The position numbers and the translations under genes were made by a program. This document shows positions 27,385 to 37,598 of a stretch of DNA of 42,859 nucleotides, piece by piece (the first letter of the stretch is position 1; each line of letters begins with the position of its first letter). A model generated the notes under the pieces. It was not told the origin of the DNA. It worked only from the letters and a program-made list of their open reading frames with translations, and did no database searches. Source of the DNA: Nitrospirae bacterium CG2_30_53_67. Its GTDB lineage: Bacteria > CG2-30-53-67. The stretch covers positions 1 to 42,859 of the forward strand of contig MNYV01000035.1 in assembly GCA_001873285.1 (NCBI GenBank), in the 5' to 3' direction.

Positions 27385-28641
27385 ATGAAACGACTTCTGA
27401 TCTTAGGGGCTGGCACAGCAGGAACCATGATGGCACACAAGATGCGCCGGAGACTCAAAGTCTCTGAATGGGACATCACCGTCATAGACAAAAGCGAAAA
27501 ACATTATTATCAACCGGGCCTGATTTTTGTTCCTTTCAAATTACACGGTTACACCGATGAAAAAGGAAGCGTGAAAAATACCAAGGATCTTCTCCCCAAG
27601 GACGTAAACTTTATAAATAAACCTATCACCCGACTCGACCCGGAAAATAACCGCGTGGAGACCGCAGATGAGTCGTTTGAGTATGATTGGCTGATCCTCG
27701 GCCTCGGCTGCAGGATCGCGCCGGAAGAGGTTCCGGGGCTTGAGGAAGGCTACGGCAAAAACGTATTTTATTACTATACCATGCCGTCAGCCCTGGATAT
27801 GCAGAAGGCCCTGGAGGATTTTGATGGAGGGAGGCTGGTCCTGAACATTGCAGAATATCCCATAAAGTGCCCGGTTGCGCCGATCGAGTTTATCTGCCTG
27901 GCCGACTACTTCTTTCACCTCAAAGGGATCCGCCATAAAGTGGACTTGGAAGTGGTCACCAGCGCGCAGGGAGTTTTTACCAAACCGGTGGCCGGACGTA
28001 TGCTGGGGGACATGTTCAAGGCAAAGGGGATCAAGGTAACCCCTAACTTCCCTGTGGCCGAGGTCCGTTCGGACCAGGGGAAGATCATCTCCCATGATGG
28101 GCAGGAGGTCCGTTTTGACTTCCTCGCCTCCATTCCGCCCAATGTGGGGGCGGAAGTCATCGATCAGGCCGGCATGGGAAATGGAAACGGCTATGCCCTC
28201 ACGCATCCGAACACCCTGAAATCCCAGAAGTACGACAACATCTATGTGATCGGCGACTGCACCAACGTCAATACCTCCAAGGCCGGATCCGTGGCCCACT
28301 TCGAGGCAGGAATCGTGGAGAGAAACCTCCTGAGGGAGATGGAAGGAAGGGCGCCGCTCCCGGATTTTGACGGGCACTCCAACTGTTTTATTGAAACCGG
28401 CTTCAAAAAGGCGCACTTGATTGATTTCAACTACAAGCAGGAGCCGATTCCCGGAAGATTCCCGCTCCCTACTTTCGGCCCCTTCTCATTGTTGAAAGAG
28501 ACACGGCTAAACCACATGGGAAAGCTCTTTTTCCGGTGGTTTTACTGGAATATGCTGCTGAGTGACTTGGTGGATCTGGAGATGATTATTCCTACGAGCA
28601 TGAGCTATCTCGGAAAGGATCTCTCATACGTAACAAAGTAG
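27385..28641 (+). CDS. sqr: Sulfide:quinone oxidoreductase (type III-like)
   Basis: GAGTAG, YQPG, IKCPVAPIE, IGDC, SKAG, GHSNCFIETG. Confidence 0.85.
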   Translation: MKRLLILGAGTAGTMMAHKMRRRLKVSEWDITVIDKSEKHYYQPGLIFVPFKLHGYTDEKGSVKNTKDLLPKDVNFINKPITRLDPENNRVETADESFEYDWLILGLGCRIAPEEVPGLEEGYGKNVFYYYTMPSALDMQKALEDFDGGRLVLNIAEYPIKCPVAPIEFICLADYFFHLKGIRHKVDLEVVTSAQGVFTKPVAGRMLGDMFKAKGIKVTPNFPVAEVRSDQGKIISHDGQEVRFDFLASIPPNVGAEVIDQAGMGNGNGYALTHPNTLKSQKYDNIYVIGDCTNVNTSKAGSVAHFEAGIVERNLLREMEGRAPLPDFDGHSNCFIETGFKKAHLIDFNYKQEPIPGRFPLPTFGPFSLLKETRLNHMGKLFFRWFYWNMLLSDLVDLEMIIPTSMSYLGKDLSYVTK

Positions 28642-28957: not shown

Positions 28958-29011
28958 TTGACAGCCGGAAAAACTTGGTTATAATTAAGACAAATTGGAC
29001 ACTTTTTGTCC
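28958..29011 (+). promoter_or_regulatory. Sigma70 promoter of rrf2-iscS-iscU with putative Rrf2 operator
   Basis: TTGACA-16-TATAAT overlapping tataattaagacaaattg and agacaaa...tttgtcc dyad. Confidence 0.65.
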
Positions 29012-29029
29012 TGTGTTCAGGGAGATTTT

Positions 29030-29449
29030 ATGAAACTCACACGGGCTGGAGAATATGGCATACGAGGAATGCTTTACCTGGCCATGCAGCCCAAGGATCG
29101 GGTGACGCTTCTCAGTGATATCTCCAATACCCAGAATATTCCTGAAAGTTATTTATCAAAAATTTTTCAGATACTGACCAAGGCCGGGCTCGTCCGATCC
29201 CACCGCGGGTTTAAAGGGGGATATACCCTTGGGCTCCCTCCGGAAGAGATCACGATCAAAGATATCATCGAAGGAATTGAAGGCCCCATTGCGCTAAACC
29301 GCTGTGCCATGGAAGAGAGCCTGTGCAGTGAGGACACCGGCTGCCGGATTCAGGATGTCTGGAAAGATGCTCAAAACGCCATGGTCGGCGTCCTCGCAGG
29401 GACTACCCTTGCGAATTTGGTGGAAAAGTCGTTGTCCGGAGGGTCATAA
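29030..29449 (+). CDS. Rrf2 family transcriptional regulator (IscR/NsrR-like, 3 Cys)
   Basis: MKLTRAGEYGIR, YLSKIFQIL, SHRGFKGGY, C..C..C tail. Confidence 0.92.
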   Translation: MKLTRAGEYGIRGMLYLAMQPKDRVTLLSDISNTQNIPESYLSKIFQILTKAGLVRSHRGFKGGYTLGLPPEEITIKDIIEGIEGPIALNRCAMEESLCSEDTGCRIQDVWKDAQNAMVGVLAGTTLANLVEKSLSGGS

Positions 29450-29489: not shown

Positions 29490-30662
29490 ATGAACAGAAT
29501 CGTCTACCTTGATTATGCTGCATCTACACGCCCTTATCCCGAGGTCATTGAGGCCATGCAGCCCTTTTTTCTGGAGCATTTCGGGAACCCTTCCAGCTTC
29601 CATGTTTTCGGTACGGCCCCGAAGAAGGCTATCGAGCAGGCCAGAGCGGAATTGGCGGACCTCATCCATGCCAAACCTGAAGAGATCCTCTTCACGGCAT
29701 CCGGCACAGAGGCCAACAACCTGGCTGTCAAAGGGATTGCCATGGCCATGGAAAAGAAAGGAAAGCATATCATCACATCGGCCATTGAGCACTACGGTGT
29801 GCTTCATTCCTGCAAGATGCTGGAACGGCTGGGCTTCGAGATCACCTATCTCCCTGTGGACGAATATGGGATGGTAGACCCTGATGAGGTAGGCCGTTCC
29901 ATCAGGAAAGATACCATCCTGGTTTCCGTGATGCTGGCCAACCATGAAGTGGGAACCATCCAGCCGATCCGTGAAATTGCAGAAATCACACGCGGGAAAA
30001 AGATCCCCCTCCATTCCGACGCCCGCATGGCCGTGGGACATATCCCGGTCGACGTGGGAGCATTGGGCGTCGACCTGCTCACCATCTCAGGGCAGCACTT
30101 TTACGGACCCAAAGGGTCCGGCGCCCTTTTCATCAGTAGGGGGACCCGCATCCAGCCGCTGATCCACGGGGGCATACAGGAACAGGGGCGGAGAGCCGGC
30201 ACCGAAGATGTCCCCGCCATTGTCGGGCTGGGAAAAGCCTCGGTCATGGCAAAAGAAAAAATTCTTGAAGAGATGAAACGTATCGCCGCATTACGAAACA
30301 AACTGGAAAAGGGGCTGATCAATCAAATCGATGAATTGAAGGTGAATGGTCATCCGGAGAAACGTCTTCCCGGCTTTCTGAATATTTGCGTTAGATATGT
30401 GGAAGGTGAAGGGATGATCATGATGCTGGTCTCCAGGGGGATCATGGCGGCCAGCGGTTCAGCCTGTTCTTCCAAGGCATTGAAGGCGTCTCATGTATTG
30501 ACGGCCATGGGTGTGGACCATGCCACGGCACAGGGATCCCTCCTGTTCAGTCTCGGCAGGGAAACCCAAGAAGAAGATATTGATTATGTCCTTGCCGAGA
30601 TGCCCCCGGTCATTAAAAGGCTCAGAATGATGTCTCCCATCTATCCCGGGAATCGTTCCTGA
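29490..30662 (+). CDS. iscS: IscS/NifS-type cysteine desulfurase homolog lacking the PLP-binding Lys
   Basis: YLDYAA, GNPSS, SGTEANN, EH, GGIQE..RAGTE, SGSAC; SGQHFYGPKG in place of SGHKxYGPKG. Confidence 0.9.
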   Translation: MNRIVYLDYAASTRPYPEVIEAMQPFFLEHFGNPSSFHVFGTAPKKAIEQARAELADLIHAKPEEILFTASGTEANNLAVKGIAMAMEKKGKHIITSAIEHYGVLHSCKMLERLGFEITYLPVDEYGMVDPDEVGRSIRKDTILVSVMLANHEVGTIQPIREIAEITRGKKIPLHSDARMAVGHIPVDVGALGVDLLTISGQHFYGPKGSGALFISRGTRIQPLIHGGIQEQGRRAGTEDVPAIVGLGKASVMAKEKILEEMKRIAALRNKLEKGLINQIDELKVNGHPEKRLPGFLNICVRYVEGEGMIMMLVSRGIMAASGSACSSKALKASHVLTAMGVDHATAQGSLLFSLGRETQEEDIDYVLAEMPPVIKRLRMMSPIYPGNRS

Positions 30663-30691: not shown

Positions 30692-31084
30692 ATGCAGCAT
30701 TCAGATTACAGTGAAAAGGTCATGGACCATTTTAATAATCCCAGAAACATGGGGGAAATCCGGAATCCGGATGGAGAAAGCCAGGTCGGAAATCCAACCT
30801 GCGGGGATATGATGCAGATCCAGATCAAGGTGGAGGATGGCAAGATCAAGGAGGCCAAGTTCAAGACCTTCGGCTGTGTTGCGGCCATTGCCACCAGCAG
30901 CATTTCAACGGAAATGATTATCGGAAAGACCCTTGAAGAGGCTGAAAAACTGACCAACGATGCCGTGGCCCTGGCTCTTGACGGGCTTCCTGCGCATAAG
31001 CGGCATTGCTCGGTTTTGGCGGCGGAGGCTATCCAGGCCGCCATCCAGAACTACCGGGAACATGCCCTCGGCGGCGCGAAATAA
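30692..31084 (+). CDS. iscU: Fe-S cluster scaffold IscU/NifU-N
   Basis: YSEKVMDHF.NPRN, NPTCGD, FGCVAA, KRHCS. Confidence 0.95.
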   Translation: MQHSDYSEKVMDHFNNPRNMGEIRNPDGESQVGNPTCGDMMQIQIKVEDGKIKEAKFKTFGCVAAIATSSISTEMIIGKTLEEAEKLTNDAVALALDGLPAHKRHCSVLAAEAIQAAIQNYREHALGGAK

Positions 31085-31102: not shown

Positions 31103-31498
31103 ATGGCGGAAAAAATGGCCCTGATCGTCTTCAGCAATGAGATTGACAAACTGATCGCTACCTTTAATCTTGCCTTGGGCGGGGCTTCCATGGGGATGGA
31201 TGTGGTTCTCTTCTTCACCTTTTGGGGGCTCGAACTCCTAAAAAAAGACAAGACCGGAGACAGTTATCAGAAACCGAATCCTTCACTGGAGAAGATGATG
31301 GCCCATCCTAAGTTTCCATCCATCGACCAGATGGTGAAGATGTGCAAGGAGATGGGGGTCAAGTTTATCGCCTGCACACAATCCATGGAATTCATGGGAC
31401 TCACCAAGGATGATCTCCTCCCTGTGGTGGACAGTATAGCCGGCGTTGCAACGTTCCTGGCCGATGCTGAAAACGCTAAAATCAATCTTCTGATATAA
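31103..31498 (+). CDS. DsrE2-like (DsrE/DsrF/DrsH-like) sulfur relay protein
   Basis: LFFTFWGL, IACTQSM, AGVATFL. Confidence 0.88.
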   Translation: MAEKMALIVFSNEIDKLIATFNLALGGASMGMDVVLFFTFWGLELLKKDKTGDSYQKPNPSLEKMMAHPKFPSIDQMVKMCKEMGVKFIACTQSMEFMGLTKDDLLPVVDSIAGVATFLADAENAKINLLI

Positions 31499-31513: not shown

Positions 31514-31816
31514 ATGGGAACAAAGCAAACGACAGCCGTAAAAGCGGATGTAGTCCTTGACGCCTTTGGATTGATCTGCCCGATGCCGATCGCCAAGACC
31601 TGTCAGGCCATCAAGGGAATGGAGGTCGGACAGGTCCTGGAGGTCATCGCCGACGACCAGGGAATCGTTGAGGATATGCCGAGCTGGTGCCATACCACGG
31701 GGAATGAATTCCTCGGGATTGCGGAAGACCATGGTGAATATCATGCCTTCGTACGTAAGAGAGTCATCGACAGCAAAGAATGCCGTAGGCCCCCATGCAA
31801 TCATCCGTCTCAATAA
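31514..31816 (+). CDS. tusA: Sulfur carrier TusA/SirA
   Basis: LDAFGLICPMPI, LEVIADD, DMPSWC. Confidence 0.92.
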   Translation: MGTKQTTAVKADVVLDAFGLICPMPIAKTCQAIKGMEVGQVLEVIADDQGIVEDMPSWCHTTGNEFLGIAEDHGEYHAFVRKRVIDSKECRRPPCNHPSQ

Positions 31817-34132: not shown

Positions 34133-34459
34133 ATGAATAAAATTAAAGTTAGATTCTTCCTAAATGAACCGAATGGCAAAACGTGAAACCATTTTAAGCA
34201 AATGATGCCCAGTTTGGGCATCAAATACGAAATAGAAATAGAAACCATCACAAAACCCCGGGCGGAATACCGCACCAGAGAGTATCTTAAGCAGGGTTTA
34301 CCAGCGGCGCCGGCCATTATGGTGGGGAACGAAATTGTTATCGCGGGATCGAATATTTCGGTGGATAAACTTGAAGCCGTTATCTGCCGACATTTGGGAT
34401 TATCCACACCGGAGCCGCAAAAGAAAAGTTTGACTGATCGTTTATTCAAGAGTAACTAA
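34133..34459 (+). CDS. tsoC: Selenoprotein with thioredoxin-like fold, NEPxGxxU motif (TsoC-like); UGA at 34184-34186 read as Sec
   Basis: RBS aaggag + ATG; MNKIKVRFFLNEPNGKT-UGA-NHFKQMMP continues in frame into ORF 34202-34459; SECIS-like hairpin follows; PAAPAIMVGNE cis-Pro motif. Confidence 0.82.
34203..34223 (+). promoter_or_regulatory. Bacterial SECIS-like hairpin
   Basis: tgatgccc-agttt-gggcatca, perfect 8-bp stem with loop G (34212) 26 nt after the UGA. Confidence 0.72.
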
Positions 34460-36299: not shown

Positions 36300-36391
36300 A
36301 AAATCGGCGTCCGTTTTCCGCTCTTTTTATGCTGTAAACAACGCGGGTTATTTCTTTATTGTTTTTTTAATTCATATTTTCCTTGACTTAT

Positions 36392-36415
36392 CGTTATTCC
36401 ATGCTGTATATAACG
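36392..36415. promoter_or_regulatory. ModE operator overlapping a promoter
   Basis: CGTTAT-N12-ATAACG matches the ModE consensus; TTGACT at 36383. Confidence 0.8.
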
Positions 36416-36418
36416 CTA

Positions 36419-36793
36419 ATGCACAAAAAGCACAAAGGAAAGATATCGCCGGGTTTTCGAGGACGTATCTGGATTGATGGGGAAAAAGGAACCTTCCTGG
36501 GATATGGAAGAATTGTCCTTCTCGAAAGAATCCATGAGTACGGCTCTATTACAAAGGCTGCCAAGTCTATGGAGATGTCTTACCGAAACGCCTGGGAACT
36601 TGTGGACTCGATGAATACACAATCCAGTCAGCCGCTTGTTGAAGCAGCGACCGGCGGCAGGGGAGGCGGAGGCGCCATTCTGACTGTTGAAGGAGAGCAT
36701 GCAATCAAACTTTTCTGGGAATTTCATAAGGATTTCCAAAACTTCCTCAGGCATGAGGAACAAAAACTGATGCGGTCGAAAAGTAAACGGTAA
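36419..36793 (+). CDS. modE: ModE family regulator (winged-helix only, no TOBE domains)
   Basis: GRIVLLERI...GSITKAAKSMEMSYRNAW, GGRGGGGAILT. Confidence 0.88.
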   Translation: MHKKHKGKISPGFRGRIWIDGEKGTFLGYGRIVLLERIHEYGSITKAAKSMEMSYRNAWELVDSMNTQSSQPLVEAATGGRGGGGAILTVEGEHAIKLFWEFHKDFQNFLRHEEQKLMRSKSKR

Positions 36794-36824
36794 ATTAAGA
36801 CAAAAGATAAGAGGCGGTAACAAT

Positions 36825-37598
36825 ATGCTTAGAGGATTTTCACGTATATCAGTAGTTGTGCTTTTTATCGCAGTGATATTCTCATCTGTGACGTTTGCAG
36901 AATCACCAAAGGAAATAATCGTATCGGCGGCCGCTGATTTAAGCCGTGCCTTCAAGGAGATCGGGGCAGTATATGAAAAGGAAACCGGAGTAAAGGTGTT
37001 ACTCAATTTTGGCTCCACAGGCCTGCTGGCGCAGCAGATAGAAGGTGGCGCTCCAGTTGATCTTTTTGCCGCTGCAAACAAAAGCTACATTGACTCCCTC
37101 GAAGGAAAAGGTCTCATACTGCCTGAAACCAGGAAGCTTTATGCAGTCGGACGAATTACCCTCGCCACGCCAAAGTCATATGCAAAGTTAAGTTTTTTGC
37201 AGGATTTATTAAGGCCTGAGGTCAAAAAAATCGCTATTGCCAATCCGGCTCATGCGCCTTACGGAATGGCTGCGAAGGCTGCAATGGAGAAGATCGGCAT
37301 CTGGAAAAGGCTAAAAGATAAGTTGGTATTGGCTGAAAATATACGTCAGACCCTTGATTATGTTGAAACCGGGAGTGTGGATGCAGGAATTGTCGCCCTC
37401 TCCGTCAGCATAGGTTCAAATACAAACTTTACCCTTATTCCTGAAGAACTGCATCCTCGGATTGAACAGGCAATGGCTGTAATAAAAAACGGCCGCAATC
37501 CCAAAGAAGCAAAGGGATTTGCTGATTTTATAAACGGACCGGCAGGCAGGCCAATCATGAAAAAGTATGGCTTTGTTCTTCCAGTTGGAATGAAGTAA
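36825..37598 (+). CDS. modA: Molybdate ABC transporter substrate-binding protein
   Basis: SAAADL, FGSTG.LAQQI..GAPVDLF, IANPAHAPYG. Confidence 0.94.
   Translation: MLRGFSRISVVVLFIAVIFSSVTFAESPKEIIVSAAADLSRAFKEIGAVYEKETGVKVLLNFGSTGLLAQQIEGGAPVDLFAAANKSYIDSLEGKGLILPETRKLYAVGRITLATPKSYAKLSFLQDLLRPEVKKIAIANPAHAPYGMAAKAAMEKIGIWKRLKDKLVLAENIRQTLDYVETGSVDAGIVALSVSIGSNTNFTLIPEELHPRIEQAMAVIKNGRNPKEAKGFADFINGPAGRPIMKKYGFVLPVGMK

Follow-up and report, generated by a model that had tools for sequence, protein, structure and literature searches.

Archaeoglobus fulgidus IscS, the one IscS protein free of pyridoxal 5'-phosphate (PLP) studied so far, has no desulfurase activity and ligates the cluster on the IscU scaffold with its own Cys, according to the passages on this protein in PMC7585200; its sulfur donor was left unknown. 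A similar mode of action is suggested, in the same passages, by the authors who described IscS1 of Methanosarcina acetivorans, an IscU-paired protein without the catalytic Lys (PMC7585200); this protein formed inclusion bodies and is uncharacterized. From where anaerobes and archaea that make no use of cysteine obtain the sulfur of their iron-sulfur (Fe-S) clusters is an open question. The MIS system is called the least studied in a review (PMC13066941). Here we describe a Lys-less IscS-type protein, denoted IscS*, that is encoded in an operon with an IscU scaffold and two sulfur carriers of the DsrE2 and TusA families (Table 1) in the groundwater bacterium Nitrospirae bacterium CG2_30_53_67 (contig MNYV01000035.1 of assembly GCA_001873285.1; the whole stretch of 42,859 nt analyzed is referred to as the window).

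The partners of IscS* are known from other systems. In Escherichia coli, TusA is loaded by IscS, for which it competes with IscU (compare PMC11302665). The MIS system consists of a two-gene core, the IscS-like MisS and the IscU-like MisU, without chaperones or carriers (Garcia et al. 2022, as presented in the corresponding section of PMC13066941), and is reported there to occur in anaerobes and archaea and to be able to use sulfide. The IscS*-IscU locus resembles MIS in that hscBA, iscA and fdx were found neither in the operon nor in the window, to which the search was limited; it differs in that the review calls MisS a cysteine desulfurase and, in its section 2.4, is silent on Lys-less members and on TusA or DsrE2 partners (PMC13066941). 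TusA and DsrE-type proteins are established protein-to-protein persulfide relays, as outlined in the part of PMC11094781 that deals with them. In the rhd-tusA-dsrE2 relay of sulfur oxidizers such as Allochromatium vinosum, the gene for TusA adjoins that for a DsrE2-type protein, and the relay, which is linked to a rhodanese, supplies DsrC/DsrAB or sHdr in energy metabolism (same part of PMC11094781). Here, in contrast, the TusA/DsrE2-like pair is linked to IscS* and IscU, no rhodanese accompanies it, and the DsrE2-like protein misses the cut-off of the NCBIfam DsrE2 equivalog (NF047629, 57.9 vs 210), matching only the broad Pfam model DrsE_2.

An intact IscS-type protein with a dismantled PLP pocket

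The class-V aminotransferase fold of IscS* is covered by the Pfam model Aminotran_5 over residues 5-367 (250.7 bits). The closest solved chain is 9wep, a 406-residue 'cysteine desulfurase' (E = 9.3e-133, residues 3-388 aligned), and other solved relatives include IscS2 of A. fulgidus (4eb5, E = 2.3e-114) and IscS of E. coli (1p3w, E = 2.1e-101). The scores remain below the NCBIfam equivalog cut-offs for both NifS (TIGR03402, 510.7 vs 530.75) and IscS (TIGR02006, 409.7 vs 643.2). An AlphaFold2 model generated with 27 sequences of the clade described below (pLDDT 90, pTM 0.89) is of low confidence only at the Cys loop, residues 325-330, and has TM-scores of 0.92-0.97 against NFS1, E. coli IscS and A. 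fulgidus IscS.

An earlier note on this stretch had reported that the canonical motifs of the PLP pocket are altered and the mobile-loop Cys intact. The motifs read exactly as it claimed, namely ANHE at residues 150-153, HSDARM at 175-180, SGQHFYGPKG at 200-209 and SGSAC at 322-326. Residues were mapped through alignments to 9wep and E. coli K-12 IscS. The PLP Schiff-base Lys, K206 in E. coli, aligns with H203 (cac, 30096-30098), in agreement with the note, while H205 is replaced by Q202 (cag, 30093-30095), Q183 by M180 and N155 by H152; a further replacement, which the note did not mention, is that of R354 by L352 (ctg, 30543-30545). H104 and D180 are retained, as H101 and D177 of IscS*. We take N155, Q183, H205, K206 and R354 of E. 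coli IscS to be contacts of PLP and substrate, with R354 binding the substrate. Across 234 Lys-bearing homologs, conservation reaches 100% for K206 as well as for R354 (94-98% for N155, Q183 and H205), so that the combination seen in IscS* is far from chance. The mobile-loop Cys326 (E. coli C328; tgt, 30465-30467) is kept and is invariant in alignments A1 and A3, and the C-terminal LRxMSP motif, presumably the IscU contact in IscS proteins, is also kept.

Comparison with the solved structures places these changes. The 9wep series, closest in sequence, is nevertheless canonical at the same sites (HTDAVQ, SAHKMYGPKG, NNE). A. fulgidus IscS2 in its complex with IscU (PDB 4EB5, 4EB7 and 4HVK; D199K variant 4R5F) has the same fold (TM 0.92-0.97) and, like IscS*, a replaced PLP Lys, a kept Cys loop and an IscU partner. 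In the alignment with 4eb5, the equivalents of Q183, H205 and R354 prove to be replaced in A. fulgidus IscS2 as well (HIDATA, SSNDIYGPKG, GTLLLTLGR), although the Lys position is Asp there and His in IscS*. Compared with the A. fulgidus IscS2-IscU pair alone, the present operon adds Rrf2, DsrE2 and TusA. With its Lys and pocket replaced, its Cys loop kept and an adjacent iscU, the sequence of IscS* appears to fit the PLP-free type of A. fulgidus; that precedent, which the earlier note had rightly invoked, is described in the passages of PMC7585200 cited above, and the representative closest to it may belong to the same clade (see below). E. coli IscS, solved alone and with IscU or TusA (PDB 1P3W, 3LVL, 3LVJ), shares the group-I fold and the long mobile Cys loop (TM 0.94-0.95), and its partners IscU and TusA, with an Rrf2-type regulator, have counterparts near iscS*. 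However, all five E. coli pocket residues are replaced in IscS*, and its operon is devoid of hscBA, iscA and fdx. Set against the definition of a group-I cysteine desulfurase (EC 2.8.1.7), IscS* has the fold and the Cys loop but neither the Lys, nor the pocket, nor a score above the NCBIfam cut-offs.

The motifs SG[Q/L]H[F/L]Y, H[S/T/A]DAR[M/L] and [A/G]NHE recur in all seven orthologs from the same family, which are 74-92% identical. Codons 202-203 are identical in a DNA contig of run X4, which comes from a separate study, and in contigs of the RNA libraries X21 and X23, those of X22 not reaching these codons; an assembly error as the cause of the Lys loss is thereby ruled out. Among the run contigs, iscS* shows six differences, four of them synonymous and the others V187I and R217K. 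The ratio of nonsynonymous to synonymous substitution rates (dN/dS) is 0.064 against the same-genus ortholog and 0.063 between two other orthologs, these being the two pairs with unsaturated dS. IscS* is thus under strong purifying selection, which also rules out a pseudogene. Contigs from the RNA libraries X21-X23 extend over most of the operon; being contigs, they are no evidence for or against transcription or a single transcript, and gaps in their cover carry no meaning. The stretch also occurs in public data, with 24 runs listed that come from 21 groundwater and aquifer studies. IscS* is, in short, an intact protein under selection in which the PLP pocket has been dismantled. That it can no longer draw its sulfur from cysteine, and represents a PLP-free branch of the IscS/NifS family, is a reading of these alignments to which we give even chances.

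The Lys-less clade and its gene neighbourhoods

A survey of Lys-less homologs and their neighbourhoods, a step proposed in the earlier note, was based on the best 150 of 54,698 matches, taken as representatives at 50% clustering; 13 of these 150 (about 9%) lack the Lys. In a FastTree phylogeny of 270 homologs from which the trait columns had been removed, a 32-row clade, supported at 95, comprises 31 of the 35 rows that lack the Lys (rows covering fewer than 300 query residues, L003, L024 and L101, and the window duplicates L001, L005 and L129 were left out of the trees). The 25 clade members sampled for IQ-TREE (LG+C20 by PMSF, quick search, 87 rows, trait columns removed) were recovered together with an SH-aLRT of 95. 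Residues that are at least 90% conserved in the 234 Lys-bearing homologs and lost in the 25 non-redundant clade members are N155, Q183, H205, K206, R354, T12 and S323; the R354 equivalent is L or V in all 25. The Lys position itself is variable, being occupied by Q, R, H, T, S, G, L or P, and such free variation is expected of a pocket that is not used. The clade also has residues of its own, K332 and R220, which correspond to E. coli E334 and R225, occur in 96% and 92% of the members, respectively, and are both carried by IscS*; they mark the bacterial subclade, whereas A. fulgidus-like rows lack them and read EPS or QPS. The sole Lys-bearing member of the clade, P0002, has already lost the equivalents of Q183 and R354 (HTDAAA, SLLFS) and may represent either an intermediate state or a reversal.

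Of the representatives, P0035 is closest to A. fulgidus IscS2 (E = 1.9e-128 to 4eb5) and shows the same losses. Free tree searches left it outside the clade, without support. A constraint uniting the clade with P0035 and P0107, a group named after the trees had been seen, gave a log-likelihood 32 above that of the free search (p-AU 0.795), and with the archaeal Lys-less copy L157 added, FastTree joined all of them in a group of 35 rows, 34 of them Lys-less, with a support of 93. A single origin of the Lys-less clade and A. fulgidus IscS2 therefore remains likely rather than demonstrated; parallel (convergent) relaxation could draw Lys-less rows together and thus mimic kinship.

The neighbourhoods of Lys-less and Lys-bearing copies differ. 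A TusA hidden Markov model (HMM) built from 17 operon-linked sequences and applied to 120 loci found matches at 19 of the 22 Lys-less loci and at none of the 98 Lys-bearing ones; DsrE2-like matches were found at 17 of the 22 Lys-less loci, compared with a single, weak one (E = 0.0006) among the 98. A broad, unselected sample drawn from named genomes with a pattern common to all IscS (80 of at least 600 stretches), which omits the family of the window and hence does not represent its nearest relatives, had TusA within 2 kb in 6 of 7 Lys-less loci vs 0 of 73 Lys-bearing loci. The seven come from metagenome-assembled genomes (MAGs) of Deltaproteobacteria, Nitrospira and Nitrospirota, from Anaerolineae, Aminicenantes and Saganbacteria, and from a cut Actinomycetota locus, and the order IscS*-IscU-DsrE2-TusA recurs complete in the Deltaproteobacteria and Anaerolineae loci. 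The strongest control within a single genome comes from a Methanomicrobiales MAG with five IscS paralogs, four of which bear the Lys and have no TusA neighbour, whereas the fifth, which lacks it (SGNQLGGPDG; V in place of R354), has three matches to the TusA HMM, a DsrE2-like gene and IscU at its sides. The DsrE2-like gene is conserved beside IscS* in relatives of group f1 and at distant loci, the Rrf2 gene lies upstream in f1 relatives and in genomes of the same class (f2), and iscU adjoins IscS* in its own genus, in f2, at L018, L035, L039 and L040 and at the archaeal L157. Outside these genes, six distant Lys-less neighbourhoods share nothing. The clade has thus kept its gene order across phyla, in distant bacteria and in one archaeon.

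Two of the distant loci have additional features. In the Saganbacteria MAG (L064, 2460-5464), a glutaredoxin gene and a thioredoxin-reductase-like gene adjoin IscS*-DsrE2-TusA so closely that the ends touch or overlap, and could provide a built-in supply of reductant. In the Aminicenantes MAG (L040, 6170-6733), IscU has a C-terminal extension of about 60 residues with four CxxC pairs, resembling a zinc ribbon.

Neither a bacterial Lys-less IscS clade nor its tie to TusA and DsrE2 was found in the literature searched, to which the primary A. fulgidus and MIS papers did not belong; the portions of PMC8300815, PMC3543383 and PMC13066941 relevant here describe no bacterial Lys-less IscS and no TusA/DsrE2 link. 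What may be new is this clade and its tie, PLP-free IscS itself having a precedent in A. fulgidus and a suspected further case in IscS1 of M. acetivorans.

The operon and its surroundings

The operon genes and other features of the window are listed in Table 1. The promoter search returned two sites, compared with 3.1 expected in shuffled sequences; the one listed, a perfect and correctly placed match, is likely to be the operon promoter, as judged by consensus only. The gaps between successive genes are 40 bp (Rrf2-IscS*), 29 bp (IscS*-IscU), 18 bp (IscU-DsrE2-like) and 15 bp (DsrE2-like-TusA), so that the promoter, Rrf2, IscS*, IscU, DsrE2 and TusA form what is predicted to be a tight operon.

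Table 1 Features of the window on and around the IscS* operon
Feature	Position	Strand	Remarks
Type III sulfide:quinone reductase-like flavoprotein (SQR-like)	27385..28641	+	NF049943, 554.7 vs cut-off 525
Promoter-like site, sigma-70-type TTGACA-16-TATAAT	28958..28985	+	12/12 consensus match, just upstream of the Rrf2 gene
Rrf2-family (IscR-like) regulator	29006..29449	+	133.2 bits with Pfam Rrf2, aligned from residue 11
IscS*	29490..30662	+	390 aa, no internal stop, IscS/NifS fold
IscU/NifU-N scaffold	30692..31084	+	130 aa; Pfam NifU_N, 158.8 bits; TIGR03419, 192.3 vs cut-off 187.9, above
DsrE2-like sulfur carrier	31103..31498	+	131 aa; Cys in FIACTQSM; Pfam DrsE_2, 118.9 bits
TusA-family sulfur carrier	31514..31816	+	100 aa; Pfam TusA, 79.7 bits; CPMP active site (Cys22)
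TauE	33283-34107		Gene run around TsoC
TsoC-family selenoprotein gene	34133-34459	+	NF045708, 95.6 vs cut-off 45; in-frame TGA 34184-34186, motif NEPNGKTU
DsrE_2	34529-34951		Gene run around TsoC
TauE	35086-35874		Gene run around TsoC
DsrE	35919-36299		Gene run around TsoC
ModE-like regulator and molybdate-binding ModA	36383-37595	+	After the sulfur/selenium carrier genes

The Rrf2 open reading frame (ORF) opens with TTG, the likelier start being the ATG at 29030 (MKLTRAGEYG...). The protein scores above the NCBIfam cut-off for the family (TIGR00738, 130.5 bits) and below that for IscR (TIGR02010, 98.3 vs 207.55). It has three clustered Cys, C-x6-C-x5-C, as in Fe-S-sensing members, and these probably bind a cluster. 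IscU keeps the canonical three Cys, Asp and His (GNPTCGDMM, FGCVAAI, HCSVLA). In alignment A2 of TusA, a second Cys is invariant (Cys59, in DMPxWC), and the C-terminal tail, C-x-RPPCN, is specific to the family; C22, P23 and P25 are invariant in all 17 operon-linked sequences. The tail (residues ~88-97) contains two further Cys in a K-x-C-x-R-P-[PV]-C-N pattern that is conserved in all six family orthologs aligned (L006-L011) and absent from 11 more distant operon-linked TusA sequences.

The earlier note had proposed that sulfur, or selenium, reaches IscS* through neighbouring SQR, DsrE and TusA proteins. The conserved TusA and DsrE2 genes agree with this proposal; the SQR-like gene does not. 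It is syntenic only in L006 and L007, the closest relatives showing it, and no SQR-like gene was seen beside six distant Lys-less copies, so that we reject SQR as a general part of the module and regard the gene as a possible local accessory outside it. The SQR-like protein matches the model 'type III SQR, selenoprotein subtype', yet its ORF is uninterrupted; presumably it is a Cys-containing form of a family that holds selenocysteine elsewhere. The TsoC gene and the TauE, DsrE_2 and DsrE genes around it lie 1.5-4.5 kb downstream of the IscS* operon, and the ModE-ModA pair 4.6 kb downstream. Nothing outside the window ties the module to selenium, and this part of the proposal finds no support.

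Possible routes of sulfur to IscU

The genome assembly (G000; 2.37 Mb, 183 contigs, 95% complete) contains no match to SufB and only one other group-I desulfurase gene, next to hisA and hisF, of which a 176-residue C-terminal piece is present where contig C131 ends (L003, 1441-1971, minus strand). The piece starts just after the Lys position, and its N-terminal half was not found anywhere in the assembly, so that its Lys has to be read from the same-genus ortholog (G001, 76% identical), which has SSHKIYGPKG, HTDAAQ and ASAAC. Two dsrAB loci (C174:552-2842 and C88:3155-5432) both have a dsrA above the TIGR02064 cut-off (577 and 488 bits). The second of two IscU genes (150 residues; contig C182, L128 1199-1651, plus strand) stands alone directly upstream of nuoA, nuoB and nuoC. 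Six TusA paralogs exceed the Pfam cut-off, including another TusA-DsrE pair. One TusA paralog (C52:19967-20179, minus strand; L163) adjoins a 325-residue PALP-family enzyme that may be cysteine-synthase-like. As to relatives, a Lys-bearing desulfurase is present in every other IscS*-holding genome whose paralogs were read (G001, G002, G003, G005 and G007-G012). Three f1 genomes (G003, G005 and G008) have three paralogs each, namely IscS*-DsrE2-TusA without IscU between, a canonical IscS with IscU, and an ASAAC type.

Replacement of the five pocket residues means that sulfur cannot flow between IscS and TusA in the E. coli direction. Unable to load its own Cys, IscS* would depend on a carrier for any persulfide on Cys326, and the carriers encoded with it are TusA and DsrE2. 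We give about equal weight for and against the reading, drawn from gene content and motifs, that TusA and DsrE2 load persulfide onto Cys326 of IscS*, which in turn serves IscU. TusA, DsrE2 or both would carry sulfane sulfur as a cysteine persulfide, derived probably from sulfide or polysulfide chemistry in this dsrAB-bearing organism, for which the SQR-like enzyme encoded nearby could be one entry point, or possibly from the canonical desulfurase via TusA. The carriers would hand the sulfur to Cys326, and IscS* would dock on IscU like a canonical IscS to deliver it; IscS* may also contribute a fourth ligand to the cluster, like its A. fulgidus counterpart, and the putative Fe-S-sensing Rrf2 protein would close a feedback loop.

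Several observations weigh against this relay. TusA is missing at three Lys-less loci, of which L010 ends 150 bp past the gene, L018 has DsrE2 and IscU and no TusA in 4.2 kb, and L030 has neither TusA nor DsrE2. Two Nitrospira/Nitrospirota loci have tusA only beside IscS*, which fits a need of sulfidic habitats poorly. The Lys-less copies being one clade, their linkage to TusA reflects shared ancestry and not repeated co-evolution; with only two independent contrasts among the loci, no sign test is possible, the link comes near to a single event and the TusA counts are descriptive, not a test. The A. fulgidus work is quoted, in the passages of PMC7585200 noted above, for a ligand role, with sulfur not coming from IscS. 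The organism very probably keeps a working PLP-competent group-I desulfurase, to judge from the ortholog of the C131 gene, and SufS-SufU is also present in f2 genomes (G009, G010 and G012), so that cysteine independence is not forced. The earlier note had proposed it as a possibility; with a second group-I gene, whose same-genus ortholog reads SSHKIYGPKG, cysteine may still be the ultimate sulfur source. Finally, iscU has no place between IscS* and dsrE2 in four f1 relatives (G002, G003, G005 and G008), and since G003, G005 and G008 have a separate canonical IscS-IscU pair, IscS* may act without an adjacent IscU.

Other explanations were considered as well. If IscS* were purely structural, as in the A. 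fulgidus model, it would stabilize IscU and give a Cys ligand while free sulfide enters, with TusA and DsrE2 serving other ends such as sulfane-sulfur buffering or the thiolation of tRNA or cofactors. The description of A. fulgidus IscS as a ligand provider without sulfur supply (in the passages of PMC7585200 concerned), the possible common clade of IscS* and the A. fulgidus-like P0035, the two dsrAB loci of an organism that makes sulfide, and the statement in section 2.4 and the Fig. 3 legend of the review that MIS and SMS can use sulfide (PMC13066941) all agree with this view. We nonetheless consider it unlikely, for it leaves unexplained why tusA is kept beside Lys-less copies and never seen beside the 98 Lys-bearing ones, and why four f1 relatives have IscS*-DsrE2-TusA without iscU. 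Sulfur might instead derive from cysteine, a canonical group-I desulfurase loading TusA and TusA passing the sulfur on to IscS*-IscU, with IscS* as an adaptor. Transfer from IscS to TusA is textbook knowledge (compare PMC11302665 and PMC11446229), and the C131 gene, with its canonical same-genus ortholog, and the Lys-bearing desulfurases of all other IscS* genomes whose paralogs were read speak for this route. Such a route is roundabout, since a canonical IscS can serve IscU directly, and the Lys of the paralog in this genome, whose N-terminal half lies outside the assembly, is predicted from its ortholog; we rate it quite unlikely.

The operons without iscU in G002, G003, G005 and G008, together with tusA standing alone beside IscS* in two Nitrospirota loci, the six TusA paralogs with their additional TusA-DsrE pair, and modE and modA downstream of the operon, would all be compatible with an IscS* independent of IscU, acting as a hub or regulator of sulfur traffic (toward the molybdenum cofactor, thiolated tRNA or DsrC) or titrating TusA or IscU from the canonical enzyme. 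That possibility seems to us very unlikely in view of the iscU genes adjacent to IscS* in its own genus, in f2, at the four distant loci listed above and at the archaeal L157, of a regulator of the Fe-S-sensing Rrf2 type, and of the retained LRxMSP motif, which presumably contacts IscU. Least probable of all, and largely refuted, are the views that IscS* is still a PLP enzyme using another Lys, that the loss of the Lys reflects faulty assembly or a gene in decay, or that the protein handles selenium. K332, nearly invariant in the clade, could be such a Lys, and the nearby TsoC selenoprotein gene and the 'selenoprotein subtype' match of the SQR-like protein hint at selenium. Against them stand the joint loss of five pocket residues, R354 included, the agreement of independent assemblies, the motif shared by all seven orthologs with the low dN/dS, and the lack of selenium genes beside six distant clade members.

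If the relay from TusA and DsrE2 to Cys326 holds, the annotation 'cysteine desulfurase' would be wrong for the whole clade, that is, for about 9% of the nearest 150 representatives. A wider proposition, which we hold only tentatively and think doubtful, is that PLP-free IscS proteins are one ancient family of Archaea and Bacteria defined by partnership with TusA and DsrE2 instead of cysteine; they would then offer inorganic sulfane sulfur, carried as a protein persulfide, a distinct entry route into Fe-S assembly that runs from TusA/DsrE2 via the Cys loop of IscS to IscU, the reverse of the E. coli direction, would cover a large share of what anaerobes exposed to sulfide need for their Fe-S clusters, and might preserve a state before or beside the recruitment of PLP chemistry. 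The five genes form a small, soluble set that is open to direct in vitro and complementation study. As it stands, a conserved operon that combines IscS* with IscU and two persulfide carriers names concrete candidates for the sulfur donor and suggests another way to feed sulfur into Fe-S cluster assembly.

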